Shown piece by piece: positions 4,683 to 28,469 of a stretch of 64,000 nt of DNA. Location: NCBI GenBank assembly GCA_963770835.1, contig CAVYRH010000002.1:173739-237738 (forward strand), given 5' to 3'. The notes beneath the pieces were generated by a model. The model searched no databases, was not told where the DNA came from, and worked only from the letters and a program-made list of their open reading frames with translations. Every line of letters begins with the position of its first letter. Position 1 is the stretch's first letter. This DNA comes from an uncultured Pseudomonadota bacterium. Its GTDB lineage: Bacteria; Oederibacteriota; Muellerivitia; Muellerivitales; Muellerivitaceae. A program made the translations under genes and the position numbers.

Positions 4683-6588
4683 CGCCGCCCCTCCTTTCCT
4701 TGCCCATGCCCCTGACCGTGGGCGGAGGCCCGCCCCTTTGAAGGCGTTTGGCGTAGGAGCCGATCAAGCGCCGCTTCTCCATTTCCTCCTTGGAGAAATC
4801 CCCCTTGCTCCTGGTGAATTCCTTGTCCATTCCCTTGGAGATGCTGTCCCCGGCGAATTTCCGCACCAAACCTGAGACGGGGTTGTCCGTTCCTTCCCCG
4901 CCCCGGTCGCGGCCTCCGATTCCCCCAACGTTTCCGATCATGTTGAGGCCCTTGACGAATCGCCCCCCGGCCACGGCTCCGGCTGTGGTTCCGACAAAAG
5001 GGATGATGGAACCCACCGCCGCCCCCGCCGCCGTCCCCACCGCCTGCCCTGTTTCACCCGTCGCGGCCTTGATGCCCCCGGCGGTCTTGAGCCTAGCCGC
5101 GTTCATGGCCCCCATCGCGGCCAGGTTGTCCCTTGCGAAATCCTTGATTCCGTCCCCCCGTAAGTTCCCTCCTTGGAAGGTGGTGAAAAGGGAGGCGAAC
5201 TCCTGGACATTGGCGATCATCTGGAGCCCCGCGATAACCGCGCAGGCGGTTAAGAGGCTGTTCACCCCGATGGTTTCGATCCCCCAATCGATGTTGGGAA
5301 TGAGGTAAAGCCCTACCAGGGTGATGGCCCAAAAGACGGAATATAGGAGTTGTTTTACGAAGTACCGGAGAGCCCCCCAGAAAATGGGGGCGGTCGCTGG
5401 GTGCCCCAGGCAACCGATAAAAGCGGGCCCCAGGAGGAACAGGACCCAGAGATTCAAGACTTGGAAAAACTTCGCAAAAATGACAGAAAAACAGACGATT
5501 AAACCCCAGAGAGCGGCCCCGCATTTGAGTAAGCCCCCTCCAAACTTGGCGATGCGGCTCTCATCCTGCGGCTGGTTGCCTGCCGTTGCGAGATTGGGGC
5601 CTGATGATGCCTGTTGGGGCGGGTATTGGACGCCGTTGTTACCCATCAACCCTTGGACCGAATAAGGAACCAGTGTTTCCCCGGATATGGCCGGGGTGCT
5701 TCCCACCGTGTCGGCCCCTCTCGCCAAAAGGACGTGGACAAGGGTGGGGACGCTCAAAATCAGGATGATCCCGGAAACCGCCTGGATGAATTTGTAATTG
5801 CCGCTTTTGGAGTCCCCTGCCGCCACCGCCGAGTAACAGTTGTAAAAACCCAGGATGACCAGGGAAAGGGAAACGAGGAAGAAAAAGTCCCAGATAATCC
5901 CCTGGGTTTTGATGAAGTTCCCCCGAAAGTCGATCTGGTTCACCTGAACCGCACTCAAGCCTGAAGGCCCGCCCAAGTTGATGTCGGCGAACCCTTCCAG
6001 GACCCCGCTGGTTTTGAGGGTATTTTGGTTGTAGAGGTAGTACCCCAAAGCTGTCACACCGTTGGTCAAAAGGGAATGGATGAAAGGCCAGGCGAAGATG
6101 GCGGTGAAAGCGCCCACAAAGACAAGGACCATCGAGGGCTCAACCGGCCTCCCCCAAAACCCTGAGGAGCGCTGGCCCACGTCCACCAGGAAAAAAACAA
6201 GGAGAAGATAGAGCCCGAAGCCGCTGGTTATCTTGAGCAGGTTCAAAACCTCGGCCACGGCTAGGGAGGCCTCACCGGCCATCCCCGGTTGTTTGGACAT
6301 GGCGGTGTAGGTGATAGGCGAGGCCAAATCCGGAATCTTGATGAGGAATGTCCCAATGTACTTGTCGTATACGTCGAAGAGGGTTTGAAGGGCCCAATTG
6401 CCTAGGCTGTCCATTCCGTTGGCGACCCAATCCGCCGCGTTCTTGGCGACGGTTTCCACGATTCCTTGGGATACCCCCTGCTGGATGGCGCCTTCCGAAG
6501 GGCCGCTATCGGTCGAGAGGACCGTAACGGCGCCCGCGCCCGGCGCCACCATCAGGGTCAAACCCGCTATATATAAAAGCTTCTTCAT
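4666..6588 (-). CDS. VirB6/TrbL-like polytopic membrane protein
   Basis: Multiple TM helices (LWVLFLLGPAFIGCLGHPATAPIFWGALRY) and a Gly/Ala-rich C-tail; probable start MKKLLYIAG. Confidence 0.75.
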   Translation of the reverse strand: MKKLLYIAGLTLMVAPGAGAVTVLSTDSGPSEGAIQQGVSQGIVETVAKNAADWVANGMDSLGNWALQTLFDVYDKYIGTFLIKIPDLASPITYTAMSKQPGMAGEASLAVAEVLNLLKITSGFGLYLLLVFFLVDVGQRSSGFWGRPVEPSMVLVFVGAFTAIFAWPFIHSLLTNGVTALGYYLYNQNTLKTSGVLEGFADINLGGPSGLSAVQVNQIDFRGNFIKTQGIIWDFFFLVSLSLVILGFYNCYSAVAAGDSKSGNYKFIQAVSGIILILSVPTLVHVLLARGADTVGSTPAISGETLVPYSVQGLMGNNGVQYPPQQASSGPNLATAGNQPQDESRIAKFGGGLLKCGAALWGLIVCFSVIFAKFFQVLNLWVLFLLGPAFIGCLGHPATAPIFWGALRYFVKQLLYSVFWAITLVGLYLIPNIDWGIETIGVNSLLTACAVIAGLQMIANVQEFASLFTTFQGGNLRGDGIKDFARDNLAAMGAMNAARLKTAGGIKAATGETGQAVGTAAGAAVGSIIPFVGTTAGAVAGGRFVKGLNMIGNVGGIGGRDRGGEGTDNPVSGLVRKFAGDSISKGMDKEFTRSKGDFSKEEMEKRRLIGSYAKRLQRGGPPPTVRGMGKERRGGDGNPT

Positions 6589-6651
6589 ATGAAACCTTCC
6601 AAATATCAAACTGCTTTAAGGGGGATATGCCCCCGTTCACTTCATAAACCG

Positions 6652-7011
6652 TCAATTACCCGCCAACACCGAGGAAACCGGACGAGCCCCGAATTCCCCG
6701 GCTTTCAGGATGAGGACGTTCACCACCACCCCCACCATGAGAATCCCCACGAAAGCCAGGACCGAGTTCCATACCCTGTCCTTGGCCGTCGTGTCCCCCT
6801 TGCTGGAATCCGCCAGGTGGTCGAAAACGTTCTTGATGCAGCCGAACAATTTCCAGAGCCCGTAGGCGTCCAGGACGAAAAGGATCAGCGTCTTGACCGG
6901 CGAAAGCTCCGGGATGCTGACCACGGCTTGGGCGAAGGCTGCCTCGGCCTCCAAAAAGATCCAAAGCGCCAAAACCACCCTTTTCTTCCCCTTAAATATT
7001 TCTTTCTTCAT
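6652..7011 (-). CDS. VirB2/TrbC-like pilin
   Basis: Signal peptide ending AFA-Q, then two hydrophobic helices separated by a KG/AKD loop; RBS GGAGG before MKKEIF. Confidence 0.6.
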   Translation of the reverse strand: MKKEIFKGKKRVVLALWIFLEAEAAFAQAVVSIPELSPVKTLILFVLDAYGLWKLFGCIKNVFDHLADSSKGDTTAKDRVWNSVLAFVGILMVGVVVNVLILKAGEFGARPVSSVLAGN

Positions 7012-7047
7012 ATCGAACCTCCGAAATAAAACATCAATACACATTCC

Positions 7048-7905
7048 TCATTGGGCCGGCGGTGCGCCTCCGGCATTTGCCGAGTTCTGGGGCTCTCGGG
7101 GTTGGACATTGACGGTCCCCAATTGCTGGATGGCGACCGAACCCCCGGTTTGAACGGCAACTGCCCCCGCAGTGTTCAACCCTTGGACCCCATTGCCGCT
7201 TGTGGCGATGTTGGAACCCGTTGACTGCCCCAAGCCGACCAGGGATCCCAGGTTCGTGATGCCAAGGGAGGAGAGGATCTGGGACACCACCAGGGACCCG
7301 ATGACGCCTCCTAGGGCCGCAATCGCGGTCCCAATGACCTGGTTGAAGGCCGAAACCAAGGCGCTTTCCTGGCTGGTTGGTTGGTATCCAGGGGCGACGG
7401 TGGGCCCAGGAAGGGCCGATATCTGCCCTGAAATCGTATTGGCCTGGGCAACGTTCCCTGTCTGGATGGCCTGTGCTTCCTGCTGGTAAAGGCCCCCGAT
7501 CTGTTGGAAATCCGGGTCGCTACTCCCCTGAAGCTGGACGGAATAACCCTGGAGTTCCGTGACAGACTGGGGCGCGAAAGCCGTTCCCACCGTTTGGGAA
7601 AGTTGGGCGCTCAAGGTGGCAAGGCCGCTCATGACCTGGCTCTTCACCCAATCGGACTTCGCCGCCTGGTTGTATTGGGTGGACGTGAAGGGACAGGGTT
7701 TCCTCGTGCCCCGCGAAACAACCCCCGTTGGGACGTAACGCCTTGCCGATTCCTTGGGAAACACCAATTCCTTCATGAGAAAATCCCTGAACCCAACCAC
7801 GTTTTGCCTTATCTCATCGTTGGTCTTGGAGTCGTCCGAAAAGGTATCGGCCGATAGGGGCTGTACGCAAAACAAGAAGATAATTGAAATCCATATACCT
7901 TTCAT
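7048..7905 (-). CDS. Secreted Gln/Gly/Ser-rich protein with hydrophobic C-terminal segment (possible VirB5-like)
   Basis: Signal peptide; translationally coupled within the operon. Confidence 0.55.
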   Translation of the reverse strand: MKGIWISIIFLFCVQPLSADTFSDDSKTNDEIRQNVVGFRDFLMKELVFPKESARRYVPTGVVSRGTRKPCPFTSTQYNQAAKSDWVKSQVMSGLATLSAQLSQTVGTAFAPQSVTELQGYSVQLQGSSDPDFQQIGGLYQQEAQAIQTGNVAQANTISGQISALPGPTVAPGYQPTSQESALVSAFNQVIGTAIAALGGVIGSLVVSQILSSLGITNLGSLVGLGQSTGSNIATSGNGVQGLNTAGAVAVQTGGSVAIQQLGTVNVQPREPQNSANAGGAPPAQ

Positions 7906-8369
7906 TCAGCCCCTCCCTTCTTGAGGGCCAGGATGAACTGGGCAACCTCAAACGGGTTTTCCACTCCCTGGAAGGCCATCTCGAATTGCCCCCGCCTGTC
8001 GGATGCCCCGGCGGTCTTGATGAAGATGTTCCCGATTCCAAAGGGCTTCTGGAGAAGGGTTTGTTCGACTGTGACATCCACTATTTTTTCAATCGGGATG
8101 CTCCTGACCTCCCTCACCAGGATTCCCTCCCTCTGCTCGACCAAGTCCTTCTTGACGACGTAAATTGTGTTGGAGAGGGCCGCCCAAGAGAAAACAGCCA
8201 ACAAGGATTCCAAGAGAATAAACAACGAGAGAACCAGCAAGGGGTCTACCCCAAGCGGTATGAGGCAAAGGAAAACCAAAGGGGCGGCAAGGACATCCAG
8301 GTAATGCGGGAAGGAAGGGTGAAGAACCTTCAGGACTTCAAATTTGATTTCGTTCAAGTTCTTTTCCAT
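7902..8369 (-). CDS. Membrane protein with bacterial PH domain (bPH_2/YdbS-like)
   Basis: Two TM helices, then REGILVREVRSIPIEKIVDVTVEQTLLQKPFGIGNIFIKTAG. Confidence 0.85.
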   Translation of the reverse strand: MEKNLNEIKFEVLKVLHPSFPHYLDVLAAPLVFLCLIPLGVDPLLVLSLFILLESLLAVFSWAALSNTIYVVKKDLVEQREGILVREVRSIPIEKIVDVTVEQTLLQKPFGIGNIFIKTAGASDRRGQFEMAFQGVENPFEVAQFILALKKGGAE

Positions 8370-8378
8370 GTCAGCACC

Positions 8379-8849
8379 TCAAAAAAGCCGGACGTAGGCC
8401 GGATCGCTGTCTTCCGTCACGAAAACCGTGATTCCAAAATCGGGAAAATAGGGCCGGTTGACCCGGATTCGAAGCTTGCGGGCTCCCGACGCCACGCCTT
8501 TCCCAAAAACCTGCCGTGTGGACTGCCGCCTCAAAATCCACCCCTGGATGGCTTGGTCGCTCGATAAGTCGAGGATGAATCCACCATCGAGTGAGGTCAG
8601 GGTGACTTCGATTTTTGCCTTGTCCGTCTCCGTCCCGAATTCAAGGGTCTGGGTTTTGAAAGGAACCGCTACCTGGGCCGTTCTTTTCCTTGTTGGCCCC
8701 GCAAACTTTGGCGGCTGGTGGTACTGGCCCAATTCCTCGATGGCCCATTGGTACCGGTCCCTGACCACGTCGAAGGGGTTATCAGTGGCCAGGACCAGCC
8801 CTGGAACAAAAAGGACTAAAGATGATATAAAGGCAGCTTTGCTGCTCAA
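8379..8849 (-). CDS. Secreted hypothetical protein
   Basis: Signal peptide; coupled to neighbouring genes. Confidence 0.6.
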   Translation of the reverse strand: MSSKAAFISSLVLFVPGLVLATDNPFDVVRDRYQWAIEELGQYHQPPKFAGPTRKRTAQVAVPFKTQTLEFGTETDKAKIEVTLTSLDGGFILDLSSDQAIQGWILRRQSTRQVFGKGVASGARKLRIRVNRPYFPDFGITVFVTEDSDPAYVRLF

Positions 8850-10033
8850 AATGACACCCCCATATCGACGGCAACAGCGGGATTGACGTAGCTGGTTGAG
8901 GAAAGCGGCAATTCCAATCCATCAGTTTCGTTTCCCTTCCCCACCGGCAGGGGTAAGGGGAAATTTGTGTTCGAAGTATTCAAGCGGGCCAAGGTGAAGT
9001 CGTTCATCGAATTGGTTATTTGCAGATCAATGAAGATGGAACGGATTCGAATCCGAGCTTTCCCATACCAGGCCATTTGGGGTAAGCCCGCCAGGGAGGG
9101 ATTGATGCCGTTCCCGCCCGTAAAGGGGTTGTTTAAGTTGGAACACAAGGGAACCTGGCTCTCAAACGTCACCTCATCCAGTGACAGGAACTCCCAGGAA
9201 AAGAGGTGTCCTATTCTTGCCCCAAAGGTGAAGGCGTTCGTGTCGAAGCTGCGGGCTGAATCCTCAACGCCATATTCGAAATAAAGCTCGTAATTCCCGG
9301 AGAGATCCGCTTTCCCGCAGATGGAATAAGACGGGTTCCCGCTTAACGATCCGTAGGTGAAGTAGTCGGAAGTACTTTCCGCCATATTGAAAAGAAGGAC
9401 GGTTGTGAGGTCTTTCCCGAAATCGAGCTTCATCCGGGCCTGGCCCATGAAAAAACCCTGGGAGCCGTCCAAAACCGCGTTATCCTCAGCCAACAGGGTC
9501 GGGAAGTAAAAGAAGCTCAAGGAAGTCGGCGGGCTTGAGAGGCCCTTGTCGTCCTCCAAGCCGAAGGAGAACTTGAACGGGATATAGACCTTTATCCCGT
9601 CCAGCCTCCTTTCCCCCATCAAGGGATACCGCCCGAAAAAGCTCGTTGGGGAGACGATGCCGGACAAATCCATGCGGCCGGCCCGGGCCTCGAACCAGGG
9701 CTCGGACAGGGAGATATTCGCCTCCCTCACTTCAACCGTTTCCACCCCATCGGAAGACGAAAGGCTTTTCCCGAAACGGATGCGGCCTTCCGCCGACACG
9801 TCGTTTTCATCGATGGGGCGTACAACCGACAAATCCACCAGGGAACCGGCTTCGCCGTTTGAGTAGGCGAGGGCCACGGTCGAGCTGACTGCTCCACTCT
9901 GCGTCTCAGGGGTCAACGCCGCCGTTGGCGTGGGCATAACCATTGGAGCCGGTGTGGGTGTGGTTTTACCCATGGCGGCTGGGACGGATACCGCGACTAT
10001 CAAACACAAAATAAAGAGCGTCTTCATTTTCAT
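8846..10033 (-). CDS. Putative outer-membrane beta-barrel protein
   Basis: Signal peptide, PT-rich linker, amphipathic beta-strands, C-terminal VDMGVSF. Confidence 0.6.
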   Translation of the reverse strand: MKMKTLFILCLIVAVSVPAAMGKTTPTPAPMVMPTPTAALTPETQSGAVSSTVALAYSNGEAGSLVDLSVVRPIDENDVSAEGRIRFGKSLSSSDGVETVEVREANISLSEPWFEARAGRMDLSGIVSPTSFFGRYPLMGERRLDGIKVYIPFKFSFGLEDDKGLSSPPTSLSFFYFPTLLAEDNAVLDGSQGFFMGQARMKLDFGKDLTTVLLFNMAESTSDYFTYGSLSGNPSYSICGKADLSGNYELYFEYGVEDSARSFDTNAFTFGARIGHLFSWEFLSLDEVTFESQVPLCSNLNNPFTGGNGINPSLAGLPQMAWYGKARIRIRSIFIDLQITNSMNDFTLARLNTSNTNFPLPLPVGKGNETDGLELPLSSTSYVNPAVAVDMGVSF

Positions 10034-10039
10034 ATCCTC

Positions 10040-11116
10040 TCAATAACTGGTGTTCAATACGGTGAAGGACCCGTTCCCAACCGAGGCGCTGCCCGTTGCC
10101 CCGTTGGAACCGCATGACGCGTGGAAGGCCGGGAATCCCCCGTCGCTGTAATAGCTGCAAGAGTAGTTGCCGGGGGAAAAGGTGATGACCCCGCCCTCGG
10201 CGTTGGTGTTCCCATTCGGGGTGTCAAAATAACCGGAGGTGCAGTTGGTGGAAGGTTCGTTGATCCACACCCTTACGGTGGCGCAGGAATTACTGCTTGA
10301 GACCGTCAAGGTTCCGTTGGCCTGTTTGACGAGGTTGCAAGAGTCATAATTGTTGAAATTAGGCTGGCTCCAGGTGACGGTCACGGTACTCGTGAAGTTT
10401 TTGGCGATGGTCTGAGGGGAACTTTCCGCTCTTGGGTAGGGAGTGGGCTCCAAGTCCAGTGCCGTCACCGAGAAGTATGCCGGCTCGTCCACGCAACCGC
10501 TCCCCGTTACCGTCACCGCCGCCGTGTCGTCCTCAAGGTAGCCAATAGTCGTTGGCCCATATCTCGTATTCCAACCCGAGGGTAGTTGGGAAAGCTTGAG
10601 CGTCACGGGAACCAGCAGGCTTCCCTGGTTGTAGGAGAGGCCGTAAAGGAAGATTCCGCCGTTGGTGCCGCTGATGCCGCTTGGAACCGGCGGCGTCAAC
10701 TGAAGGGTCGCCCCCGACGTGGTGAACTGGACTTCCTCAAACGACTGGGTAACCCCCATCGTCACCGTGGAGGGTGCATAGGGAAAAGGCGTCTGGGCCG
10801 GAATTACGAAGGTCCAGGTTCCAACTTCCAAATAAGGCGGGTTGAAGGTCGCAATTCCGGTTGTTGTGGTGGGAGCCGAAAAAGTCGTGGAGCCGGAGGG
10901 AGGTATTGCCTCAACCGTCAAACCCGCCACGCCCGCCCCCTTATCCACCACCGCGACCTGGACAGAGCCGGTGATCCTGGCAATAGGCGTGGGCGTCGGA
11001 GAAAAGGCCGTGTCTAGGGGTGAGGAAGGACTATTGGAGTGGCACCCCACCATGATTCCAACAATTCCAACCGGAAAGAGCATCAAAAGCACCAAGTAAA
11101 CAAACGCGTTCCTCAT
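10040..11116 (-). CDS. Lipoprotein with Ig-like Thr/Ser-rich domains and Cys-rich tail (adhesin-like)
   Basis: MRNAFVYL...IMVGC lipobox-like site, SPTPTP linker; RBS GGAGG. Confidence 0.65.
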   Translation of the reverse strand: MRNAFVYLVLLMLFPVGIVGIMVGCHSNSPSSPLDTAFSPTPTPIARITGSVQVAVVDKGAGVAGLTVEAIPPSGSTTFSAPTTTTGIATFNPPYLEVGTWTFVIPAQTPFPYAPSTVTMGVTQSFEEVQFTTSGATLQLTPPVPSGISGTNGGIFLYGLSYNQGSLLVPVTLKLSQLPSGWNTRYGPTTIGYLEDDTAAVTVTGSGCVDEPAYFSVTALDLEPTPYPRAESSPQTIAKNFTSTVTVTWSQPNFNNYDSCNLVKQANGTLTVSSSNSCATVRVWINEPSTNCTSGYFDTPNGNTNAEGGVITFSPGNYSCSYYSDGGFPAFHASCGSNGATGSASVGNGSFTVLNTSY

Positions 11117-11635
11117 ATCGAACCTCCTATACCTTTTCTTTGAACCCGTGATTCCCCGGCGGATTCCGCTTGAGGAACGGGGATTCAATTGTTCAAATAC
11201 GCTTCCTTGCGGGCCAAGGCATCCAATATCCAGCTAGGTTCCTTTTCCTGGCCGGCTTCTCCCACGGACGGATCGGCTTTTCCAATAACGCTTGGCGAGG
11301 CAGATTGGGTTTTACGCAAGACGAAAACCAAGGTGTGTTTCTTTTTGTGCGGGGTGGCGCAAGATGAAGCGCCCTGTTTCGAGGGAGTTCCTTTTTTCTC
11401 CAGGAAGGCAATGAGGAAGACGGTGGGGGAATTCAGCCGGAGGGCGGCCGAAAGCAACCCGGACGCCCCACGGCCGGTGAATCCCAATGCCGTAAGAACG
11501 GACCCCACCTTGAAATATACGACTCCGGCTAATACCGGCTTTTCCTGGTTCATATGGTTCACCCAATATTCCCGTTTCACTTTTTATGGCATCGACGGGA
11601 GGCCGCAAGAAAGAATACCTTTGTATACTTCCTTG

Positions 11636-16728: not shown

Positions 16729-16817
16729 TTCTTTTCCTCCCATCTGTGCCCCGGCTACTAGCTGGGGCAAACGGTTTGATTGTGCCGGGCCTCAAACAAA
16801 GGCCCGGCTTAAGTTCC

Positions 16818-17249: not shown

Positions 17250-18123
17250 AAAACCGCCTTCCCCCTCCCCCCTCAAAAACCAGAGGGGGGAGGGGAAGGC
17301 AAAGCGGGAGTTTTGGGAGATCGTGAGTGGAAAGCGCGAAACTGCCGGAGGGAGAAAAAGGAAGGCCACCCTTTACTTTTGTGCGCCGCGCCTTTTGCTG
17401 GCGCAAAAGTTGCCGTGCAAGGGTGGCCGTGTAAGTAAACAAAGCCCTATGGGGCCTCGGGACGGGCTCCCGAAACTATCCGTCGTCCAAAGACCTCAAG
17501 TCCCGGACTTCACTGTCTGCTTTGGAGTTTGCTTTTAAACAGCCAAGGAAGGAACGAGCCAGATCTACCGGGAAGGTTTGAAAGGAATCCCCGCTACCCG
17601 AAGGCCCTTTCCCCGGCGGCAAACCGAGGCGGTTTTTTCATGTCACGCCGAAATTTGCCGCTGGGGAAAGGGCTTACTGAGGCCTCAAACGCCCCATCCA
17701 TTTATCGGCGGCGTGCCAGGGCCGCATTTGGCGGTGGCCCAGGCGTGCCGCCGCCTTTGCGGGGGGACCAATCCGAAATCCCCCTCACCGGATTGTCGAC
17801 TCCAAAACACCTTCCCCCGGAGGGCTAACTTACTTTGGCTGGCGGGCAAACCGGTGAGGGGGATTTCGGCTTGGTGGGGACCCCAAAGGAAAATGGATGG
17901 GAGGTGTGTCCGTGAACACCAAACCCCCAAGCGCGGTTTTGGGAGTCAAAGAGGGGCTTTACCCCTCTTTTAGGGGTTTGGGGGCGACGCCCCCCAAGGA
18001 AAGGGGTGGGCCAAGATCATCCCACAGTCTTTGTGGGATAGCTTGGCCCAGGGGGAAGGCCCACGTTCCAAGGCGCTTTCCCTTGGAACGTTCCCCCAAA
18101 CAAACAAAACACTGAATCGCCTA
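17250..18123. other. Hairpin-rich non-coding region, putative oriT / ssDNA-promoter region
   Basis: Perfect 19-bp IR 17773-17791/17851-17869, 11-bp IR 18063-18091 and other hairpins; directly upstream of the ardC block. Confidence 0.45.
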
Positions 18124-18152
18124 TGACCGGCCCCCCAAGTTTGTGCCACCAA

Positions 18153-19040
18153 TTAAGTCACTCCCGGAGTAGGAGTTCCTGAGGTCGTCATGGGCAAGGT
18201 GTTGCCTTTGGGCCCCATGACGACCGCCTCCGGGGCAGGCGGTTTATACCCCAGAGAGCTGTGCGGCCGTTTCGTATTGTACTCCTTCCTCCACCTCTCA
18301 GCGAGCACTCGGCCTTCCCACACCGTGTCGAGCAGTTCGCCGTTCAATAGTTCGTCCCTGAATTTGCCGTTGAAGCTTTCGTTATAGCCGTTCTCCCAAG
18401 GGCTTCCCGGTTCGATGAAAAGGGTCTTTACTCCCACCTTCGGGAGCCAGTCCTTCACCCTCTCCGCTGTGAATTCAGGCCCATTGTCGGAGCGGATGTG
18501 CTCCGGCACTCCCCGTTGGACGAACAAGTCCGTCAGCACTGCCTGCACGTCGTCCGCCGTAAACTTCCGAGCTACCGGCAGGGCCAGGCATTCACGGGTG
18601 AACTCATCGATCAGCGTCAGGAACCGAAGAGGCCGTCCGTCGCTGGTCCTCTCGGCGACGAAGTCATAGCTCCAAACGTGGTTGGGGTGTTCCGCCCTCA
18701 ACCTGACACAGGAACCATCCGTAAACCACAACCTCCTTCGTTTCGGCTGTTTTTTCGGTACTTTCAACCCTTCCTGCTTCCAAATCCTTTCCACCCGCTT
18801 CTTGTTGACCCTCCAGCCCTCCTCCTGAAGCATCTTGGTAATCCGCTTATACCCATACCGCCCGTACTGGCAGGCCAGCCGGAGAATGGCGGTCGTCAGG
18901 AGGTCCTCATCGGGCAGGATCTGAGGGATATATCGCTGGGTGCTCCGGGGTTGGCCGAGGGCCCGGCATACGCGCCGCTGGGAGGCTCGGTGGGTTTCAC
19001 ACGCTTCCCGAACCGCTTTTCGGCGCTTTTCCGGGCTTAG
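18153..19040 (-). CDS. IS3 transposase OrfB (DDE)
   Basis: WSYDF, RSDNGPEF, GSPWENGYNESFNG, YNTKRPHSSLG. Confidence 0.9.
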   Translation of the reverse strand, partial: LSPEKRRKAVREACETHRASQRRVCRALGQPRSTQRYIPQILPDEDLLTTAILRLACQYGRYGYKRITKMLQEEGWRVNKKRVERIWKQEGLKVPKKQPKRRRLWFTDGSCVRLRAEHPNHVWSYDFVAERTSDGRPLRFLTLIDEFTRECLALPVARKFTADDVQAVLTDLFVQRGVPEHIRSDNGPEFTAERVKDWLPKVGVKTLFIEPGSPWENGYNESFNGKFRDELLNGELLDTVWEGRVLAERWRKEYNTKRPHSSLGYKPPAPEAVVMGPKGNTLPMTTSGTPTPGVT

Positions 19041-19315
19041 GAGTTTCCCCGGGCCAAGTCTTTCAGGATGCGGTTATCCAGGGAGAGGTCGGCCACCACC
19101 CGCTTGAGCTGGGTATTCTCTTTCTCCAATTCCTTTAGGCGTTTGGCCTGGTCCAGCTTGAGACCGCCGTATTCTTTTCGCCAGCGGTAGTAGGTATGTG
19201 GGGTTATTTGAAGCTCACGGCAGACTTCTTCAACAGCACGGCCTTTGGACTGCTCAACCTCGGCCTGGCGCAACATGGAAATGATCTGCTCGGCGTTGTG
19301 TTTCTTCCTTGGCAT
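19037..19315 (-). CDS. IS3 transposase OrfA
   Basis: TYYRWRKEYGG...RLKELEKEN..LKRVVADLSLD. Confidence 0.9.
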   Translation of the reverse strand: MPRKKHNAEQIISMLRQAEVEQSKGRAVEEVCRELQITPHTYYRWRKEYGGLKLDQAKRLKELEKENTQLKRVVADLSLDNRILKDLARGNS

Positions 19316-19390
19316 AAATGCCCCCTTTTTCTTGGCCCATTATAGAAAAGTATGACTTTTCAACTGGACCAGGTTGAGGGGGGCGGGTCA

Positions 19391-19694
19391 AAGAAGGGTC
19401 GGAGACCATGAAATCATCAACAAAACAAACTTTTCCGCCCGGGTTATAGACTGGCGGGGAATTGACGACGGCCCCAATGATGAAACCGTTGATCTTTTGC
19501 GCACCATCCCCATATATCAAGGCGATCACGTTCTCCTTCGACAGGAAGTCTTTCAAAAAAACGGTTTGCAACTCAACTGCGCCTTCAGCCTCTTTATGGA
19601 ATTGTGGCTGGTAATTTTCATACTGCTTTCTTTTGAGGGCGGAAAGGGACGCAATGATCTTTACATCATCGGTGGTAGCTTTTCGGATAGTCAT
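19391..19694 (-). pseudogene. GNAT acetyltransferase truncated by IS3
   Basis: MTIRKATTDD...GFIIG...VYNPGGKVCFVDDFMV, cut at the IS end before the acetyl-CoA motif. Confidence 0.75.
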
Positions 19695-19726
19695 TCTCTT
19701 CTCCTGATGGACTTAAACCGTAAATC

Positions 19727-19758
19727 ATTGTCCACGATGGCTCCCCGTCGTGGACAAC
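19727..19758. repeat. 32-bp palindromic cassette-boundary repeat, copy 1 (intact)
   Basis: ATTGTCCACGATG-GCTCCC-CGTCGTGGACAAC. Confidence 0.85.
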
Positions 19759-19762
19759 CAGC

Positions 19763-20164
19763 CTATAGGTTTTTCAGAAAATTGGACGGATTCACGACTT
19801 TTACATTTTGGTAAACCCCAACATCCAACAAAGCATTATCACCCGAGACGATGAATTCAGCGCCCCCCGCCAATGCCGCTGCAATAAACTTATCATCATC
19901 TGGGTCTTTGCAAATACCTTGGACAGGCTTGGCGTTCACCAGTTCGCAATTCAACTCGATGATTTCAAGTATGGTCCCAACCTCAACGCCAGGGTGTCGT
20001 TTAGCTAAGTCTTCCAAAACGCGGTGGTACTCCTCAAGGATTTCCGGGGATGCCAATAACTTGAAGTCACCTCGTTCCCAAGATTCAATGACTTGGTAAG
20101 GCTTCCCCTTCCAGAAGATTCCAGAAACAAGAACATTCGTGTCTATTACAACAATCCTTTTCAT
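19763..20164 (-). CDS. vapC: PIN-domain toxin (VapC-like)
   Basis: VVIDTNVLVSG, CKDPDDDKFI, IVSGDNALL. Confidence 0.9.
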   Translation of the reverse strand: MKRIVVIDTNVLVSGIFWKGKPYQVIESWERGDFKLLASPEILEEYHRVLEDLAKRHPGVEVGTILEIIELNCELVNAKPVQGICKDPDDDKFIAAALAGGAEFIVSGDNALLDVGVYQNVKVVNPSNFLKNL

Positions 20165-20421
20165 TTACCGCGCCGGACACGGGTTATGGCGGTCTTCACG
20201 TCCGACGGACGCAATCCAGCTTCACTCGCTTGCTTTCGTGCGGTGGCAAGTAAACCGCCCAGATGGCTTAAGGATGGCGGGGTGATCGCTCTGAAAATCA
20301 CCGAATCACCTTGGCCGACAACGACGAACTGATCCCCTTCTTTGAGATGCAGACTTTTGCGGATGGATTCGGGAATAACTACCTGCCCTTTCGAGGAAAG
20401 CTTTGTGGTTGCTATGGTCAT
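20161..20421 (-). CDS. vapB: AbrB/MazE/SpoVT antitoxin
   Basis: TKLSSKGQVVIPESIRKSLHLKEGD; 4-bp overlap with the toxin; operator-like palindrome CCAGTAATCTTACTGG upstream. Confidence 0.9.
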   Translation of the reverse strand: MTIATTKLSSKGQVVIPESIRKSLHLKEGDQFVVVGQGDSVIFRAITPPSLSHLGGLLATARKQASEAGLRPSDVKTAITRVRRGK

Positions 20422-20508
20422 AGGTCACCTCCCAGTAATCTTACTGGTAAGAATATACGTAAATCCAGGTCATTTCAACTGTCTGTTTTCATGTCCAATA
20501 GGGGTCCC

Positions 20509-22449
20509 GTAGGGTCGAGGACTGGTGCGGTGGCCTTCTGGCTCCGTTTCCAGTCCCCGCCTCCTCGAACGTAGCGTGCGGATTTCCCGCACTACGCTCA
20601 CCTGTTGCTTTCCTGTCAAAGTTTATGTGACCTATCAGACGGGTAGCGCTTTCGGTTCTTGGTAATATCGTATTTGGTAGCTTCTGTACAACCCCAGATA
20701 CTTATATATCCACTCCCTACTCCACCTATCCCGCCCAAAACCGTCGAGCTTCTTCGCACGCATCATATGCCGTCTGATTTTATTCTCGACCCATCTTTCC
20801 ACGTAGTTAAAACAGCGCCTAGAATTCCCTATCCGAAAGTAATTCACCCACCCACGCAGTTTGGGATTGATAATCTCAATCACCCTCTGCACCGGCTGAG
20901 ATTGGAAGCTTCCAAATGTTTCCTTGAGCTTACCCAGAAGTGTTGCTCGCGCCTTCATTTTCGGCGTGAACTTCACCCCCCATTTCCCTCGACGGGTTTT
21001 CACCTGTCGAAAGTCAAACCCCAGAAACCCGAAACTTTCACCTTTCGTTAAGTCTGCTATCCGCGTCTTGTCCGTGTTGATTTGCAAGTCGAGCTTGGTC
21101 AATTCTTCAAGTAACCTTCGGTAGGCAGCCTTTGCCAACCATTCCCATTGCGGATATCCATTAACAAGGATCACCATATCGTCAGCGAACCTCGCATATT
21201 CGATATAGTTGTTCTTCCCTTGCCGAGTCACTTCTTTTGCCTTTTCCAGCATCTTATCCACCTCGTTGAGGTAGAGATTAGCCAGAAGAGGGGAAATAAC
21301 CCCTCCCTGCGGGACTCCTCTTTTGCCGCTGGCCTTCAGGATCATCCTCAACAATCTCAACACCGTTTCATCCTCAACCCTTCGGGCAACTTTCTTCATC
21401 AGAAGGTCGTGCCTTACCGTGTCGAAATATGCCTTGAGGTCTACATCAATGACTCGGGTTTTTCTACAGACGATTGCCGATGCTACCCTGTTCACAGCCG
21501 CATGAGCGGTCCGCTTGGGTCGATACCCATAGGACCCTTCTTGAAAATCGGCCTCAAAAATCGGTTCCAGAATAAACTTCAGTGCTCCCTGGACTACTCT
21601 ATCCCGAATGTTGGGTATCCCAAGGACTCTTACCTTCCCATTTCCCTTGGGTATTTCCTTCTTCCGGTTTCGAACGGGCTTATACGTGCCTTGAACTAAT
21701 TCACCCCGGATGCTTTCCAGAAACGACTCCACTCCGGCCTCCTCAATGGCATCAAACGTCACCCCATCTATTCCAGGGGCTCCGTTATTTACCTTAGCCA
21801 TTCGGTAAGCCTGTTGAAGCGTTTCCATCTTGCAAACATGGGTGTACAGTCCCCAGAAACTCCAGTTCTTTTCAGCCTTCGCTTTGACGTATATCTCTCG
21901 TCTCAGGTCTTGCAGGTTAATTGACGTCTTTTTCATACCGTCACTGCCTTCCGTTTTGTCGAGGGACTTAACAACAGCAGGGTTCCTTCGCTCCACGGGC
22001 ATTACCCCGCTTCATCGCTACCATGAACCCATCCTAAACCCTCTCACCTTCGACCGTTTTCCCGCGTCACGGTTATACGGCCTACCTTTCTCCAAGCATT
22101 TCTGCCTGGGGCAAGGAGGGTTTCTCCAGTTGCTTGGCGTGTCCTTGTCTTCGTGCCGTTGCTATCACCCCGTCGGAGTGTTCCAGCGCTTCAGCCATTT
22201 CTCCGCGCTGTCCCATGATGCTTTCGTCCCACGACGGCGGACTCAGCCTCCGAGGCAAGTGTTTTCGGGGCCACCTGTGCATTTACTTTCGTTACGGCCC
22301 GACGACTCGCTCACCATCCTTTCGATGGCTTTGTTGATGGGCTTCAGGCATTTGGTTTCCCGCTTGCCTGCCATCCTAGCTAATGGGCTTTGGCTATTAC
22401 CCATGCAAGACTATCTCTTGCTGAACACACCTGCCTTTTCTGGACGCAC
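20509..22449 (-). mobile_element. Group II intron 1
   Basis: 5' GTGCG; domain V GAGCGTAGTGCGGGAAATCCGCACGCTACGTTC; 3' CCCTAC; internal RT ORF. Confidence 0.9.
20635..22002 (-). CDS. ltrA: Group II intron reverse transcriptase/maturase (no endonuclease domain)
   Basis: PGIDG, RVLGIP..RDRVVQ, GVPQGGVISPLLANLYL, RFADD, FLGF. Confidence 0.93.
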   Translation of the reverse strand: MPVERRNPAVVKSLDKTEGSDGMKKTSINLQDLRREIYVKAKAEKNWSFWGLYTHVCKMETLQQAYRMAKVNNGAPGIDGVTFDAIEEAGVESFLESIRGELVQGTYKPVRNRKKEIPKGNGKVRVLGIPNIRDRVVQGALKFILEPIFEADFQEGSYGYRPKRTAHAAVNRVASAIVCRKTRVIDVDLKAYFDTVRHDLLMKKVARRVEDETVLRLLRMILKASGKRGVPQGGVISPLLANLYLNEVDKMLEKAKEVTRQGKNNYIEYARFADDMVILVNGYPQWEWLAKAAYRRLLEELTKLDLQINTDKTRIADLTKGESFGFLGFDFRQVKTRRGKWGVKFTPKMKARATLLGKLKETFGSFQSQPVQRVIEIINPKLRGWVNYFRIGNSRRCFNYVERWVENKIRRHMMRAKKLDGFGRDRWSREWIYKYLGLYRSYQIRYYQEPKALPV

Positions 22450-22483
22450 CGTCGTGGACAACCTCAAAAGCGACTTTGATTTT

Positions 22484-23080
22484 TCACCTTTTGTTAAATA
22501 ATTCTTTGATCGTCTTAATGGGCAAAAATAAGGTTTTAGGATCGCTCGACAATGGGACAAACCCATATTTCCGATAAAATCGGACGGCGTTTTCATCCTT
22601 GGCGTCAACCACCACGGCATATATGCCAACTTCTTCCGATAAGCGATCGGCCTTGCCAAGGGCATTCCATAAAAGCTCTCCCCCGATTCCTTGGCCTTTG
22701 TGATGCTTGTCTACCCCTAACCTTCCAATTCTAACGGCAGGGACGGGATAGCGAGGTAGGTGTTTAGAGTGGATTGCAGGAATACTTTGGGCGTCAATCT
22801 CGGAAGCAACAAGGGTGTAAAAGCCCAATGCCTTCCGGCCCCCCTGCGCCGAGGTCTCAAACCGAGGCTCTCGCTTGGGTTGTGCCGGTTCCAAATGGGA
22901 ACCGGCCCCGCCCTTTTCCACGGCCACAAAAGTTTTGCTGATATTCCGATCGTGATTTTGCCGGGCGTATTTTTGGAGATAGTCATTCAGGGCCGGTGCG
23001 CCGCAATCGAAAGACCCCAAGTCCAAATGGCGGGATATTGGCTGAATGTCCATATTCAAAGGTTTTTCAGAATGGCTCAA
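22484..23080 (-). CDS. GNAT toxin (TacT/AtaT-like)
   Basis: FDCGAPALNDYL, LPRYPVPAVRIGRLGVD, GQGIGGELL, VVVDAKDENAVRFY. Confidence 0.9.
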   Translation of the reverse strand: MSHSEKPLNMDIQPISRHLDLGSFDCGAPALNDYLQKYARQNHDRNISKTFVAVEKGGAGSHLEPAQPKREPRFETSAQGGRKALGFYTLVASEIDAQSIPAIHSKHLPRYPVPAVRIGRLGVDKHHKGQGIGGELLWNALGKADRLSEEVGIYAVVVDAKDENAVRFYRKYGFVPLSSDPKTLFLPIKTIKELFNKR

Positions 23081-23352
23081 GCGCGGCTATGCTTCTTGGC
23101 GAGGGCCAAAAGGGCCTTAGTGGGGCGGGGCGGATGCTCCATGACTTTCATGAAGGAATTCCACTCGTTTTCCGAAAGGGTGATGCGGCTTTGGGCCGTA
23201 AGCCCTTCCTGGGCGGCTTTCAAAGAATTAAAAAGCATGAAGGCGCTGAGACTTAGCCCGAAGATCGAGGCGGCTTTTTCAAGCATGGCCTTGTCCTTCG
23301 GTCGGATGCGAATTTCGATTCGTTGTTCCCTTGATTGCGTTTCCGTCGCCAT
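23077..23352 (-). CDS. DUF1778 RHH antitoxin (TacA-like)
   Basis: RIEIRI...KAMLEKAA...SLSAFML...ITLSENEW..F...PP.PT.AL. Confidence 0.9.
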   Translation of the reverse strand: MATETQSREQRIEIRIRPKDKAMLEKAASIFGLSLSAFMLFNSLKAAQEGLTAQSRITLSENEWNSFMKVMEHPPRPTKALLALAKKHSRA

Positions 23353-24965
23353 AAACCCTCCTTATACCTTTAAAAGAAGTATACATTAACGTACGGATGA
23401 TGTCCACACATAAGGTGTAGAGTAGAACACAGGCGCAGTAATGTGCAGGTTAACCCTTGGCTTGTTTCCCTGTTTCCAGTTCCGTGCCCGTTTAGGATCG
23501 CCCATCATTCCGTTTCCTGCATCCCCTCATCAAACCGTACGTGACCTTTTCGATCATACGGCTTTCCGACAACCTTTCATCCGGCGGCATACGAGCTAAA
23601 AGTTGGAATCCAGTTCAAACCAAGGCGTTTCACTTCCTCGATCGGCCATGTTCGTCCTTCCCAGGCGTACTTACGCCTCCGGAACAAAGTCAGCCTCTCC
23701 AGTACGTAAAATTGGAGCTTAGAAAAGTACTGCTGGCTATCCCCGATACGAAAATAGTTGGCCCATCCCCTCAACACCGGGTTCAAAGCCTTCGCTAAAT
23801 CCTCCATTGGAGATAAGAGTCGCTCTCGGCCCGCCGTCATCTGCTTCACCTTCTCGGCGATTTTCTTCATAGCCTTCCGACTCGGCCAGCTCAGGCAACA
23901 GGTCTTTCCCAATCCTACCACTGGCATACCTACTTGAAAATGAAACCCCAGGAAGTCAAAACCTTCCTTTGCAGGCCCCATTTCCACCAGCCGTGTCTTT
24001 TCCGGGTGCAGTTCGAGCCCCATACGTCCCATCAATTGCTTGATGACCTCCAGGCTCTTTTCCGCATTGGCTTGGCTACCGCACAGCACCACAAAATCAT
24101 CTGCGTACCGTACCAGCCTTCCCAATTTCCTGTGCCTCTTATTCCAAACCTTGTCCAACAAGTGGAGGTAAACATTGGATAACAGCGGTGAAATTACTCC
24201 GCCTTGGGGCGTCCCTTGGACGGTCGGCCTAAGCCTACCTTCCTCAAACACACCCGCCTTCAGCCACCCTTGGATCAGGTTCAAAATATTCCTGTCACTG
24301 ACCCTCTGGCGCACTAGCACCATCAGTTTGTCATGGTCGATGGAATCGAAATACTTCCTGATGTCTCCATCCACTACCCATGTGTACCCCCCGTTGATCC
24401 ACTTCTTGATCTCCCGGTGGGCCTGTTGGGCTCCGCGTTTTGGCCGAAATCCAAACGAGCCTTCCAGAAAGTCCGCCTCAAAAATAGGTTCTACCACCTT
24501 CCGGCAAGCCGCTTGGACTACCCGATCCCGGATTACCGGAATTCCCAACGGTCTCTTACTTCCGTCAGGCTTGGGTATTTCCACTCGTCTCACCGGCTTA
24601 GGCCGGTACTTCCCAGATTTGAGTTCCTCCTGGATTCCCTTCAGGAATGGAATAATCCCTACCTTCTTTTCAATCCATTCCAGTGTTTCCCCGTCCACTC
24701 CTCCTTGGCCTTTGTTAGCCTTCACCTGTTTCCATGCCGCTACCAGGACATCCCATCGGGTCATCCTGTCGTACAGCACATGGAACCTTCGGTTCGGGCT
24801 CCTCTTGGCCGCTCGGTATAGCTCCCTTTGAAGGATTCGCGCCTTGTCTTCGGAGATAACATGAATGAGCCAGCGGCCTGCGTAAAATAAAACGGGCCTT
24901 GTTGAAGGGCCCTAATTCGCGGGTTGCTCCTTGAGGGAGCCTATCCGCATACGGAGGGCTGGCTC

Positions 24966-26069
24966 ATGGAAAATAATATCACGGTGGTCGGGTTGGATGT
25001 CCATAAGGATACGGTGGTAGGTGCGGTCCTGCCGGCTAGGGCCGAAAATGTGAAGGATATTTTTACAATCGAGAACACCCCAAAAGCATTGGGGAAAATG
25101 CTGGGTAAGTACGAAGGACGAGGGTCAATAACGTTTGTGTACGAGGCGGGCCCTTGTGGATATGACATCCACCGGCAATTAACCCAAAAGGGGTTGAAGT
25201 GCGTCGTAATCGCCCCTGGGAAAATTCCAGTGAAAGCCGGGGATCGGGTGAAGACAGACCGCCGAGATGCGGAAAAGTTGGCCCGTCTTTGGAGGGCGGG
25301 AGAGCTGACGGAAGTGCGGGTTCCGACCATCCAAGAGGAAGCCTGTCGGGATCTGGTTCGAGTTCGTGAGGATGCCCTAGAAGACCGGCAAAAGGCCCGG
25401 CACCGGTTGTCGAATTTCTTTCTTCGGCAAGGTCGTATCTTTCGAGAAGCTAAGAATTGGAGATCAGCCCATGAGGCATGGCTGAAAACCCAAAAGTTCG
25501 AACCTCTGGAACTGCATGAGACTTTCGAGGCATATGTCCGCGGGAAGCAAGAGGCAGATGAGCGGTTGAGGAGTTTGACGAGCCGAGTGGAGGAGATGGC
25601 CAGCCAAGAACCCTACAGGAAACTGGTCAAGCATTTGAGGTGCCTGAAAGGGGTTGATACCTTGAGCGCCATGACCTTGGCGGTGGAAGGCCAAGATTTG
25701 AGGCGATTTGAGAGCGCTCGTAATTTCATGGGTTACGCGGGTTTGGGGATATGTGAAAGCAGTTCAGGTGGAAAAATCCGTCGGGGAGGAATCACCAAGA
25801 CCGGGAACGCCCATTTGAGACGGATTCTTGTGGAATCGGCTTGGAGTTACCGCCATGGGAAGTCGGTCGGCGTGGTTTTAGAAAAAAGGCGGGAGGGTTG
25901 TCCGGTGGAGATTTTAAAGATCGCCCGCAGAGCACAGGATCGTCTGTACAAAAAGTTTCTAAAAATGACCCAACGTAACAAGCCCATCCAAAAAGTAGTG
26001 GTGGCCGTAGCCCGGGAGTTGGCTGGATTTGTGTGGGCCATCGCCCAGGAAACAACAGGAATGGTTTAA
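24966..26069 (+). CDS. IS110 DEDD recombinase/transposase
   Basis: VGLDVHK, YEAGPCG, VKTDRRDA, ESSSGG, ITKTGNAHLR, VAVARELAG. Confidence 0.93.
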   Translation: MENNITVVGLDVHKDTVVGAVLPARAENVKDIFTIENTPKALGKMLGKYEGRGSITFVYEAGPCGYDIHRQLTQKGLKCVVIAPGKIPVKAGDRVKTDRRDAEKLARLWRAGELTEVRVPTIQEEACRDLVRVREDALEDRQKARHRLSNFFLRQGRIFREAKNWRSAHEAWLKTQKFEPLELHETFEAYVRGKQEADERLRSLTSRVEEMASQEPYRKLVKHLRCLKGVDTLSAMTLAVEGQDLRRFESARNFMGYAGLGICESSSGGKIRRGGITKTGNAHLRRILVESAWSYRHGKSVGVVLEKRREGCPVEILKIARRAQDRLYKKFLKMTQRNKPIQKVVVAVARELAGFVWAIAQETTGMV

Positions 26070-26099
26070 CAAGGTCATGAAGGAAGAACCCTGTTTCCG

Positions 26100-26270
26100 G
26101 AAGCTTGGCAACGATTTGGAGAACCCTCGGTACAACTCTGTGGCGCAAAGGCCTAAGCCTGCGACGACCCACGATCAGAGATCGAGGCAGCTCCCGACGA
26201 ATGAAAATCTTGCGTCCCTGGAACCAGCAATGGGTCTAACACGCGAATATCAGTTTGATTCATCGTCGAA
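26100..26270 (+). ncRNA. Putative IS110 bridge RNA
   Basis: Two internal loops carrying target-matching (ACAACTC, TCAGAG) and donor-matching (ATCT, ATATCAG) segments. Confidence 0.65.
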
Positions 26271-26923
26271 ACAAGCCGGGCTTTCGAGATCAGGGCTTTT
26301 CGCAGGGCCTTGAGGTGGAAAAGAGTAGGATAAAACCAAAGGAAAAACCAGCGGGCTTGACTGGCTCATTCATATCAGTTGTTGGCCTTTTGGGGCATGC
26401 TCCAGCGCCTCCCTTTTCCGGTTGCTTGGTTGAAGCAGGGGTCCTTCCCTCCAGGTGGTTTTGTTGTCCACCCTTCAGCGGTAGTGTGACCCCCTCCGAC
26501 TTCCTCTCGCCCTTACCACTTTTCGGTTTTAGCCTTATAGCGGCAAGTCTTTTGGCGGGTAGGATCTCCCAGGTTGCTTGCATAGCCTTTCCAACATTCC
26601 GTTCCCCATACGCCGGAGGATTTGCCCCGCTTGCTCCAGATTCTTTAGCGGGATAATAGCCTTCGCCGGTAGACACGCGGCTCGGCATCCTCTTGCACCT
26701 TTCGGTGTCCCTTTCACGACGCGGCAAGATTCACTTGATGTTGCGGACTGCTGAATTGTTCCCTCACCAAATGAGGTTTATGACCCCGTTTCGGGCAGGA
26801 CCTCTCGGCCCTACGCCGGGGGCTGACTTCCAGGCTCTCTGGCGATTACCTGGTCAGGACTTGGGCTGGCCCTCCTCGACCTACTCCCTCACCTGCTGGC
26901 TCTGCAAACCTTCGCTGGCACGC

Positions 26924-26953
26924 TGTCCACGAAGGGTCCCCGTCGTGGACAAC
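26924..26953. repeat. Palindromic repeat copy 3 (first 2 bp displaced to 23415-23416 by intron 2)
   Basis: GT|TGTCCACGAAG-GGTCCC-CGTCGTGGACAAC. Confidence 0.85.
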
Positions 26954-27060: not shown

Positions 27061-28115
27061 GCCGAATTCACGGAGTAAGTGCAACACTTCGCCGGAAGAC
27101 TTCCGCCGGAGTTTGAAAGCCCAGACACTTCTTAGGCCTGTTATTGAGGGACCTTTCGATTGCCTTGAGCTTCTTGGAGGACACTTTAGCAAGGTCAGTC
27201 TTTTTTGGCAAATAGCGGCGAACAAGACCAATGATATTTTCCACGGAACCTTTTTCCCAACTGTGGAAAGGAGCGCAGAAAAAGGATTTTGTACCAAGGA
27301 CTTGATTGGTTTCCAGATGGTTGGTGTTTTCGGTTCCATTGTCATAGGTCAGACTCAGGCGAGCCTGTTGCGGGAAGCGGCTTAAAGTACGGTTAAGGCT
27401 ATGACTCATTTGGAGAGCTGTCTTTCGTTTGAGCTTTCCCAGCTTGGAGAACCGGCTTTGACGCTCGACGAGAGCGCGTACAGCAGCCTTACTTTGACGG
27501 GAAACCATAGTGTCCGTTTCCCAATGGCCAAACTGCTTGCGATGCTTGACGGTCTCTGGTCTCTTGTCGATGGAAACACGGCCTGGGATATGGCTTTTGG
27601 CGTGCCTGTGGCTGTGACCAAAGGCGAGCCGCCGCCGGTGGTGACGGACCAGGCAAGGAATCAGATCAGTGGCCTCAGCGTAAATCCACTGGTAGATGGC
27701 TTCGGGACCAATGGTTTGCTTAGGCCGCAGGTGGCCTAAACGGCCTGAAATGAGTTCGGGAGACCAACCGCGTTTCAATTGGCGACGGACGTAGGCACGA
27801 ATTCGTTTTGTTTTCAGGCGTAAACGACGAGCCCGTTGTTGGTTACGGGCCACATACCGTTGATGGGCCCGATGGGAAAGATAGTAACCAGAACGGATGG
27901 GGGGAGCGTTGCGCTTGAGTTCCCTGGAGAGGGTGGAAGGAGACCTCTTCAAGGCGCGGGAGATGGCCCGAAGGCTAAGGCCTTTTCCCTTCAAGACGGA
28001 TAAATGATCTCTTTCCTCAACACTTAAATGCTTGTAGTTCTTTTTCATGGCCGCATATCCTATGGATGCGGCCTTCTTCAGGCACTAAGTGTTGCACTTA
28101 CTAATGGAACTCGGG
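27061..28115 (-). mobile_element. IS30-family element
   Basis: Imperfect terminal IRs sharing AGTAAGTGCAACACT; TAA flanks both ends. Confidence 0.88.
27068..28048 (-). CDS. IS30 transposase
   Basis: YKHLSVEER...RSPSTLSRELKRN, WSPELIS, GHWETDT, LTYDNGTE, WEKGSVEN. Confidence 0.93.
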   Translation of the reverse strand: MKKNYKHLSVEERDHLSVLKGKGLSLRAISRALKRSPSTLSRELKRNAPPIRSGYYLSHRAHQRYVARNQQRARRLRLKTKRIRAYVRRQLKRGWSPELISGRLGHLRPKQTIGPEAIYQWIYAEATDLIPCLVRHHRRRLAFGHSHRHAKSHIPGRVSIDKRPETVKHRKQFGHWETDTMVSRQSKAAVRALVERQSRFSKLGKLKRKTALQMSHSLNRTLSRFPQQARLSLTYDNGTENTNHLETNQVLGTKSFFCAPFHSWEKGSVENIIGLVRRYLPKKTDLAKVSSKKLKAIERSLNNRPKKCLGFQTPAEVFRRSVALTP

Positions 28116-28432: not shown

Positions 28433-28469
28433 TTGGCAAGGTTGCACTCTACCACTGAGTTATTCCCGC
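28433..28469 (-). pseudogene. 5' half of tRNA-Gly(GCC); probable att junction
   Basis: GCGGGAATAACTCAGTGGTAGAGTGCAACCTTGCCAA followed by non-tRNA sequence. Confidence 0.88.

Follow-up and report, generated by a model that had tools for sequence, protein, structure and literature searches.

The 64,000-nucleotide stretch analysed here (the window; contig CAVYRH010000002.1, positions 173,739 to 237,738, of assembly GCA_963770835.1, from an uncultured soil bacterium of the family Muellerivitaceae) carries a short array of gene cassettes separated by direct copies of a 32-bp palindromic site, which very probably belongs to a genuine mobile-cassette system. The reading proposed for it, given a probability of roughly 0.6, is that a large serine integrase stripped of its directionality domains has become a bidirectional cassette recombinase acting on a symmetric 28-bp site. 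This would constitute an independent gene-capture platform, with arrays of up to about 100 cassettes in one order, moving between genera on integrative and conjugative elements (ICEs), with a compact enzyme of 275 residues and a minimal site. That the short serine recombinase drives the cassette exchange is judged likely from sequence comparison. The genome under study is referred to as G000, and other G and L numbers label further genomes and loci of the analysis.

The recombination site and its cassettes

The conserved 13-mer of the site has three exact matches in the window and six at up to two mismatches, against a mean of 1.2 in shuffled sequence, with none of 100 shuffles reaching six; the three direct copies noticed in a sequence-only reading of this DNA thus stand above chance. 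On the gene strand, the site consensus is TGTCCACGACGGG-GA-CCCGTCGTGGACA, and the palindrome, previously described as 13-6-13, is symmetric inward to a 2-bp centre, giving a 13-2-13 core of 28 bp within the 32-mer. Site 1 is intact at 19727..19758 (core 19729-19756), while site 2, at 20490..22462, is divided into halves at 20490-20508 and 22450-22462 by a 1941-bp group II intron, both as first placed. Site 3, the first of the array in the gene direction, had been taken for a split copy, and it is intact at 26922..26953 with the intron beside it, the earlier join being two bases off. All three sites lie on the minus strand.

The minus-strand genes between them form three cassettes. The VapBC cassette (19759..20489; 763 bp including one site, the length first given) encodes an AbrB/MazE-type antitoxin (20161-20421) and a PIN toxin (19763-20164), and the TacAT cassette (22463..23416), which measures 986 bp including one site rather than the 984 bp reported before, encodes a TacA antitoxin (23077-23352) and a GNAT toxin (22484-23080), all assigned by Pfam. 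The third cassette (19391..19726) is cut by an insertion sequence (IS) of the IS3 family at 19390; its open reading frame (ORF) starts at 19694 and survives as a 101-residue stub that has no Pfam match, leaving its former GNAT label unconfirmed. The co-orientation of all genes, the stop codons 4 and 21 bp from the repeats and the gene start 32 bp from a repeat were all found as described. A contig of run X1, possibly the source sample of this DNA, joins 20507 to 22449 with a shorter side of 149 letters, and an intron-free form of site 2 therefore exists as DNA. Homologues of the VapBC unit at 74-84% identity carry a site or site-like end in four other genomes (L071, L325, L080 and L110), with a clean boundary at both ends in L071, and a TacAT homologue has sites at both ends in L325 and one at its 5' end in L215. 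A promoter scan scored near chance level, with -35/-10 matches preceding both toxin-antitoxin pairs.

A weight-matrix scan of G000 detected 91 intact copies of the site, compared with none in one shuffled copy of the genome, and ten further copies split by the same intron as site 2 bring the total to 101 sites on 17 contigs. All 68 neighbouring pairs less than 8 kb apart in G000 are direct repeats, as are 283 pairs against 12 in opposite orientation over the wider cassette set, and one 28.5-kb contig holds 17 sites in a single direction. An ORF ends within 75 bp upstream of 78 of 95 sites on the gene strand, as opposed to 16 of 95 on the opposite strand and to 313 of 2000 randomly chosen places. 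The cargo consists of toxin-antitoxin pairs, acetyltransferases, secreted proteins and many unknowns; an HflX-like GTPase also travels as a cassette (L015:7666-8994), and its homologues lie near sites in several genomes.

A relaxed pattern recovered the site in 30 of 99 genomes of the phylum, namely G000, 28 of the 30 other members of its family and the one other genome of the order, and in 0 of 67 genomes of other families in the phylum, so that among the 99 genomes examined the site is limited to one order. An exact scan with one genome per species returned 94 loci, and the 80 titles listed among them belong mostly to candidate division FCPU426. The search of related genomes that had been suggested from the sequence yielded a site that delimits units and is tied to one recombinase clade. 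Repeat-like scatter over the genome, with no cassette polymorphism and no associated recombinase or circles, had been named at the outset as grounds for abandoning the cassette idea; the site is indeed genome-wide, together with cassette shuffling and an associated recombinase clade.

Crossover position and the candidate recombinase

Cassettes are shown to acquire new neighbours through an exchange in the middle of the site. An 859-bp unit occurs in three 100% identical copies in G000 with different neighbours each time, and two more units recur in different arrays. Every cassette begins, at the 5' end, with the right half of one site and finishes, at the 3' end, with the left half of the following one. 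Among 411 distinct junctions, 22 pairs with a common downstream unit place 51 of their 54 differences at positions 1-13 of the 32-mer, and 19 pairs with a common upstream unit place 66 of their 72 differences at positions 18-32; a looser first pass agreed, with one difference at position 17. Since the differences separate in this way according to the unit held in common, the exchange point lies between positions 13 and 18. Shared units with differing neighbours and hybrid half-sites bear out the integron-analogous boundaries first proposed.

The geometry of a tyrosine-recombinase core, also proposed then, is not supported. The six bases at positions 14-19 differ between the two ends of 82 of 283 cassettes, compared with 23 of 283 for positions 16-17, where GA stands in 388 of 411 junctions. 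This mismatch speaks against the 6 bp of homology that a standard tyrosine recombinase would need and is consistent with a 2-bp serine core, and the site is for that reason better read as 13-GA-13 than as 13-6-13. Large serine integrases exchange strands over a 2-bp central crossover, according to the accessible part of one account (PMC11722253). The core variants of neighbouring sites were uncorrelated at every position.

Clustering of 907 ORFs near sites identified a serine recombinase that recurs beside them. G000 has one intact copy, outside the window on another contig (C17:12078-12905), encoding 275 residues with its stop codon 12 bp from a site; the earlier remark that no cognate recombinase is visible is accurate for the window, and it does not extend to the genome. 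The protein consists of a catalytic domain (PF00239) and a recombinase domain (PF07508), with invariant catalytic motifs, the catalytic serine included. It belongs to a clade of 19 proteins of 275-283 residues, 68-100% identical, all of which end before the zinc ribbon and lack the coiled coil, as judged from Pfam and alignment. Full-length relatives reach at most 59% identity (55-59%), and in a quick tree built from 61 of 120 listed matches the short proteins form one branch with an SH-like approximate likelihood ratio support (SH-aLRT) of 100. Across five intact genes, the ratio of nonsynonymous to synonymous substitution rates, where synonymous sites are unsaturated, is 0.02-0.08 for the catalytic domain and 0.10-0.25 for the recombinase domain. 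Separately, the full-length serine integrase genes at L263, L267, L268 and L273 have 3' ends that run antisense into tRNA genes.

The association with the site is specific to the short clade. All ten of its genome loci with the C-terminus in view have an identically oriented site at the gene's end. In nine of them the distance is 6-34 bp (one read by eye, where the intron of site 2 also splits the site), and in one the frame reads into the site; three fragments without the C-terminus were left out of this count. No site was found at 11 other serine-recombinase genome loci. Of 27 metagenome loci, the site is present at two of the three with at least 69% identity, the third being cut off, and at 0 of the 24 others; one of the two may come from the same organism as G076. 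The short gene stands at the downstream end of an array, convergent with the cassettes, and is often located on ICEs.

As a mechanism, it is proposed that the short recombinase would bind the two 13-bp arms as a dimer and cut around the central GA, and that, free of directionality domains, it would treat every site alike. The asymmetric GA would set polarity, such that direct repeats yield excised circles and circles re-enter any site in one orientation, and arrays without their own gene might be served in trans or only when an element bringing the gene arrives. In the available portion of a study on the LI integrase (PMC3783163), half-site positions 1-12 are occupied by the recombinase domain, and the zinc ribbon contacts the DNA beyond them, so that a protein ending after the recombinase domain matches a site with 13-bp arms; removal of the coiled coil there makes excision promiscuous, between any sites. 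A further account of serine integrase domain roles, likewise available in part, is PMC5499577.

Several observations weigh against this reading. The intact short gene occurs in only five of the 30 site-bearing genomes, with broken copies in two more, and it was not found in several genomes with dozens of sites; draft assemblies and enzyme-less arrays, as with clusters of attC sites lacking integron integrases (CALINs), could account for this patchiness. Positions 14-17 are all well conserved, with the lowest mismatch at 15, and a single-strand exchange over GGG may be an alternative at these positions; none of the 23 core variants is common to both cassette ends, hence they provide no test of a 2-bp rule. 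The excised circles anticipated from the sequence, as well as skip joints, were looked for in contigs of four runs and none was seen; two back-joints do occur in single contigs of these runs, their intervening sequence unread. The genomes compared are related, which makes the counts non-independent. In the same partly available LI study, the enzyme binds about 25-fold more weakly when the zinc ribbon is missing and no longer performs intermolecular integration when the coiled coil is missing, and integration by the short form would therefore need adaptation or a partner. Finally, the window array appears to have lost its recombinase end beside the IS3-family element (18123..19390, minus strand), as inferred from gene order only. 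This element is placed where relatives have the short recombinase and terminal site: G073 has conjugation genes homologous to those of the window ICE, then ArdC, the recombinase and an array; G020 has ArdC and two small genes arranged as in the window ICE; and the window has the same ICE backbone, followed by IS3 and the truncated cassette. A target duplication is absent at this IS3 copy and equally at a control copy.

Another enzyme could still drive the exchange, and the most substantial competing explanation, thought unlikely, accepts cassettes and site as real and treats the short recombinase as a passenger or decaying remnant, the work being done by a full-length sister serine integrase or a host protein. 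The sparse distribution of intact genes fits this idea, as do four 5'-truncated and one frameshifted copy, the weakness of the truncated LI integrase, and the occurrence of full-length sisters in several genomes of the family as well as in G025, where two sites are present. Unlike a cassette gene, though, the short gene is always reversed and terminal, with no second site within 10-16 kb on its other side in four relatives and the next site 7 kb away in G000; under purifying selection, its length and position stay the same among copies of 66-88% identity, whereas the full-length relatives end in tRNA genes or unrelated DNA without the site. A far less probable view makes the site the 11-6-11 or 13-6-13 target of some tyrosine recombinase, in the simplest case the dif belonging to the lineage's only Xer and multiplied into arrays of dif modules. 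An 11-6-11 reading of the core is possible, the only Xer orthologue tracks the site (23 of the 24 family genomes plus G025, 0 of 15 others), and other families have canonical-length XerC/D-like matches; co-occurrence and an apparently single copy in G025 had favoured this candidate until a second, degenerate G025 site near the origin and the palindrome belonging to xer itself led to its being dropped. The xer gene lies at a gene-strand switch with its own, different, conserved 11-6-11 dif-like palindrome directly upstream, in keeping with the earlier statement that the site does not resemble dif; the G025 sites lie 50 kb from dnaA, a cluster in G006 shows no skew flip, the mismatch at positions 14-19 contradicts a conserved overlap, and for 11 of the 12 tyrosine recombinase genes no full site lies within 2.5 kb.

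Two further explanations are scarcely credible. One holds the site to be a repetitive extragenic palindromic (REP)-like repeat or a terminator hairpin at gene ends, shuffled by homologous recombination or introns; hairpin folding (z -4.4 and -2.8), the position after stop codons, the attraction of group II introns, as seen with terminators, and 11 Y1 transposase genes in G000 speak for it. Against it stand the strictly direct orientation, variable flanks with neither a conserved tetranucleotide nor a U-tract, the precise inheritance of half-sites, accessory and toxin-antitoxin cargo, and the fixed link to one recombinase clade. The other sees repeats of the kind found in clustered regularly interspaced short palindromic repeats (CRISPR) or casposons, laid down by a solo Cas1, the gene for which stands behind a site in G000 (three copies), in G004 and in G014. 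This Cas1, however, is paired with an identical 37-bp repeat of its own; it occurs in 6 of the 24 family genomes, and searches of G012, G018, G020 and G021, all rich in sites, did not find it. Cassette ends, moreover, are hybrids rather than duplicates, and Cas1 was rejected as the cassette enzyme. Among further candidates, the six paralogous tRNA-island integrases of G000 were rejected, only one having a site within 2.5 kb, and Y2/IS91 enzymes matched in none of five genomes, where no control scored either. Tandem elements with terminal inverted repeats should leave half-sites at the ends of arrays, but those seen were only scattered degenerate or indel copies. A short serine recombinase acting on a 13-GA-13 site remains the preferred reading.

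The host ICE, introns and neighbouring elements

The array occupies the far end of an ICE that measures about 32 kb. One limit of this ICE is a tRNA-Gly gene with a tyrosine integrase, both some 2-3.5 kb ahead of the start of the window; the other is a 37-bp duplicate of the tRNA-Gly(GCC) 5' half at 28433..28469 on the minus strand. Carriage on an ICE, as first suggested, applies to this array; the system is not restricted to it, given 101 sites on 17 contigs. The conjugation genes (TraG/VirB4-like and TrbL-like; 1909..11188, minus strand) were recognized by Pfam, and a homologous backbone lies beside the recombinase in L312; an ArdC remnant (16307-16834) was likewise recognized by Pfam. An IS30-family element (27076..28102, minus strand) lies upstream of the array. 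The ICE duplicates the tRNA-Gly 5' half up to the anticodon loop, not the 3' end.

Two group II introns on the minus strand are associated with the sites. Intron 1 (20509..22449; reverse transcriptase 20635-22002) is inserted inside site 2; ten of its twelve genomic copies sit at the same base of a site, and it holds a stretch complementary to the conserved site arm. Intron 2 (23417..26921; reverse transcriptase 23577-24779) lies directly after site 3 on the gene strand, and 16 of 20 rows of its group abut a site, many being 798-bp ORF-less derivatives. Group II introns use the site as a landing pad, which is a passenger trait. The 798-bp derivative inserts directly after a site at C3:3681-4478 of G000 and in nine similar copies, and some sites carry both this derivative and intron 1. 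Within intron 2 lies an IS110 element (about 24861-26378; transposase 24924-26069, plus strand), all six genome copies of which are inside introns of this group or beside their ends, which suggests targeted insertion. A third group II intron, at 58593-60616, stands directly behind tRNA-Leu(CAA), with a related copy on C19.

The 12 tyrosine recombinases of G000 are Xer-like, recombinase-in-trio (RIT)-like or tRNA-island integrases; one of the six paralogous integrases (360-375 residues, 55-80% identical, three beside tRNA genes) is encoded in the window at 36629-37699. Members of the order have an apparently single divergent Xer at a gene-strand switch with the 11-6-11 palindrome upstream (L089:8014-9118; C11 of G000), which would act as its dif; GC skew in G000 was too weak, and gene-strand bias was used to place the switch. 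This layout is reminiscent of XerS/difSL.

The solo cas1, together with a 111-residue ORF, is a cassette of the system itself and is followed by the 37-bp repeat (27 copies, 23 identical). In G000 these loci lie at C3:48634-102028 and 383301-400905, C15:11464-15791 and C16:21525-37475 (L013, L024, L026 and L090-L092). The repeats enclose pieces of 0.2-12 kb, including fragments of IS3 and of cas1, and the Cas1 protein is 100% identical in three genera; in L316, a 37-bp repeat marks the break of a truncated recombinase gene. A literature search revealed no paper on this arrangement. Elsewhere in the window, a NicO nickel transporter gene (55646-56687) is split over two frames beside nikR.

Comparison with known systems

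Integrons are the textbook system for the capture and shuffling of gene cassettes. If the proposed reading is true, a second system of integron layout exists with a serine recombinase and a short double-stranded site, the strategy has arisen at least twice in evolution, and tools built on attC overlook entire pools of cassettes. The reading also touches on the functioning of serine integrases that lack directionality domains, is testable with one small gene and one 28-bp site, and could provide a small recombinase for genome engineering. The literature searched, mostly outside subscription journals and without supplements, held no description of the site, of serine-recombinase cassette arrays or of FCPU426 mobile elements.

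The likeness to integrons and CALINs is extensive, comprising co-oriented, shuffled arrays in which most cassettes hold one gene or a toxin-antitoxin pair, a site immediately behind each stop codon, a recombinase at one end and orphan arrays. An attC site spans about 55-140 bp with R and L boxes and a G/TT crossover, whereas the site here is 28-32 bp, symmetric about GA and crossed over at its centre; by length and sequence it is not an attC, as the sequence-only reading had maintained. The candidate enzyme differs as well, being a serine recombinase at the downstream end and convergent with the cassettes, and IntI (TIGR02249, E 1e-20) matched in none of five genomes including G000, where no control passed the cut-off either. 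The introns offer another parallel, as group II introns target attC sites according to the available parts of two reports (PMC3001079, PMC7923331).

Large serine integrases (LI/A118, phiC31, Bxb1, SPbeta) and the Ccr recombinases of the staphylococcal cassette chromosome mec (SCCmec) have the same catalytic and recombinase domains, with 55-59% identity between the short clade and its full-length relatives. In contrast to them, the short clade lacks the zinc ribbon and coiled coil and uses one symmetric site type in about 100 copies instead of an attP/attB pair, with single-gene cassettes as cargo. Site I of the gamma-delta/Tn3 res site is also 28 bp, and a serine enzyme that has no directionality domain cuts it around its central dinucleotide; compared with these small resolvases, the DNA-binding part here is the integrase-type PF07508, the sites delimit cassettes and show no accessory subsites.

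The dif modules of Acinetobacter, with pdif sites alternating in orientation, depend on XerC/D; the site here is direct and unrelated to dif in sequence, and the host Xer has its own site. The resemblance lies in 28-bp sites that bracket small, shuffling accessory or toxin-antitoxin modules, as described in the accessible parts of three papers (PMC13141974, PMC6449649, PMC12907356). CRISPR arrays and casposons differ in having identical duplicated repeats rather than hybrid cassette ends, with Cas1 here tied to another repeat, and REP elements and REP doublets forming hairpins (REPINs) differ in their tetranucleotide foot, inverted pairs and flanking RAYT gene, against variable flanks, direct pairs and a single one of the 11 Y1 genes lying in a unit here. 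The system is therefore integron-like in its working, fails the defining tests of integrons, dif modules, REP elements and CRISPR arrays, and stands apart from any standard large serine integrase system.

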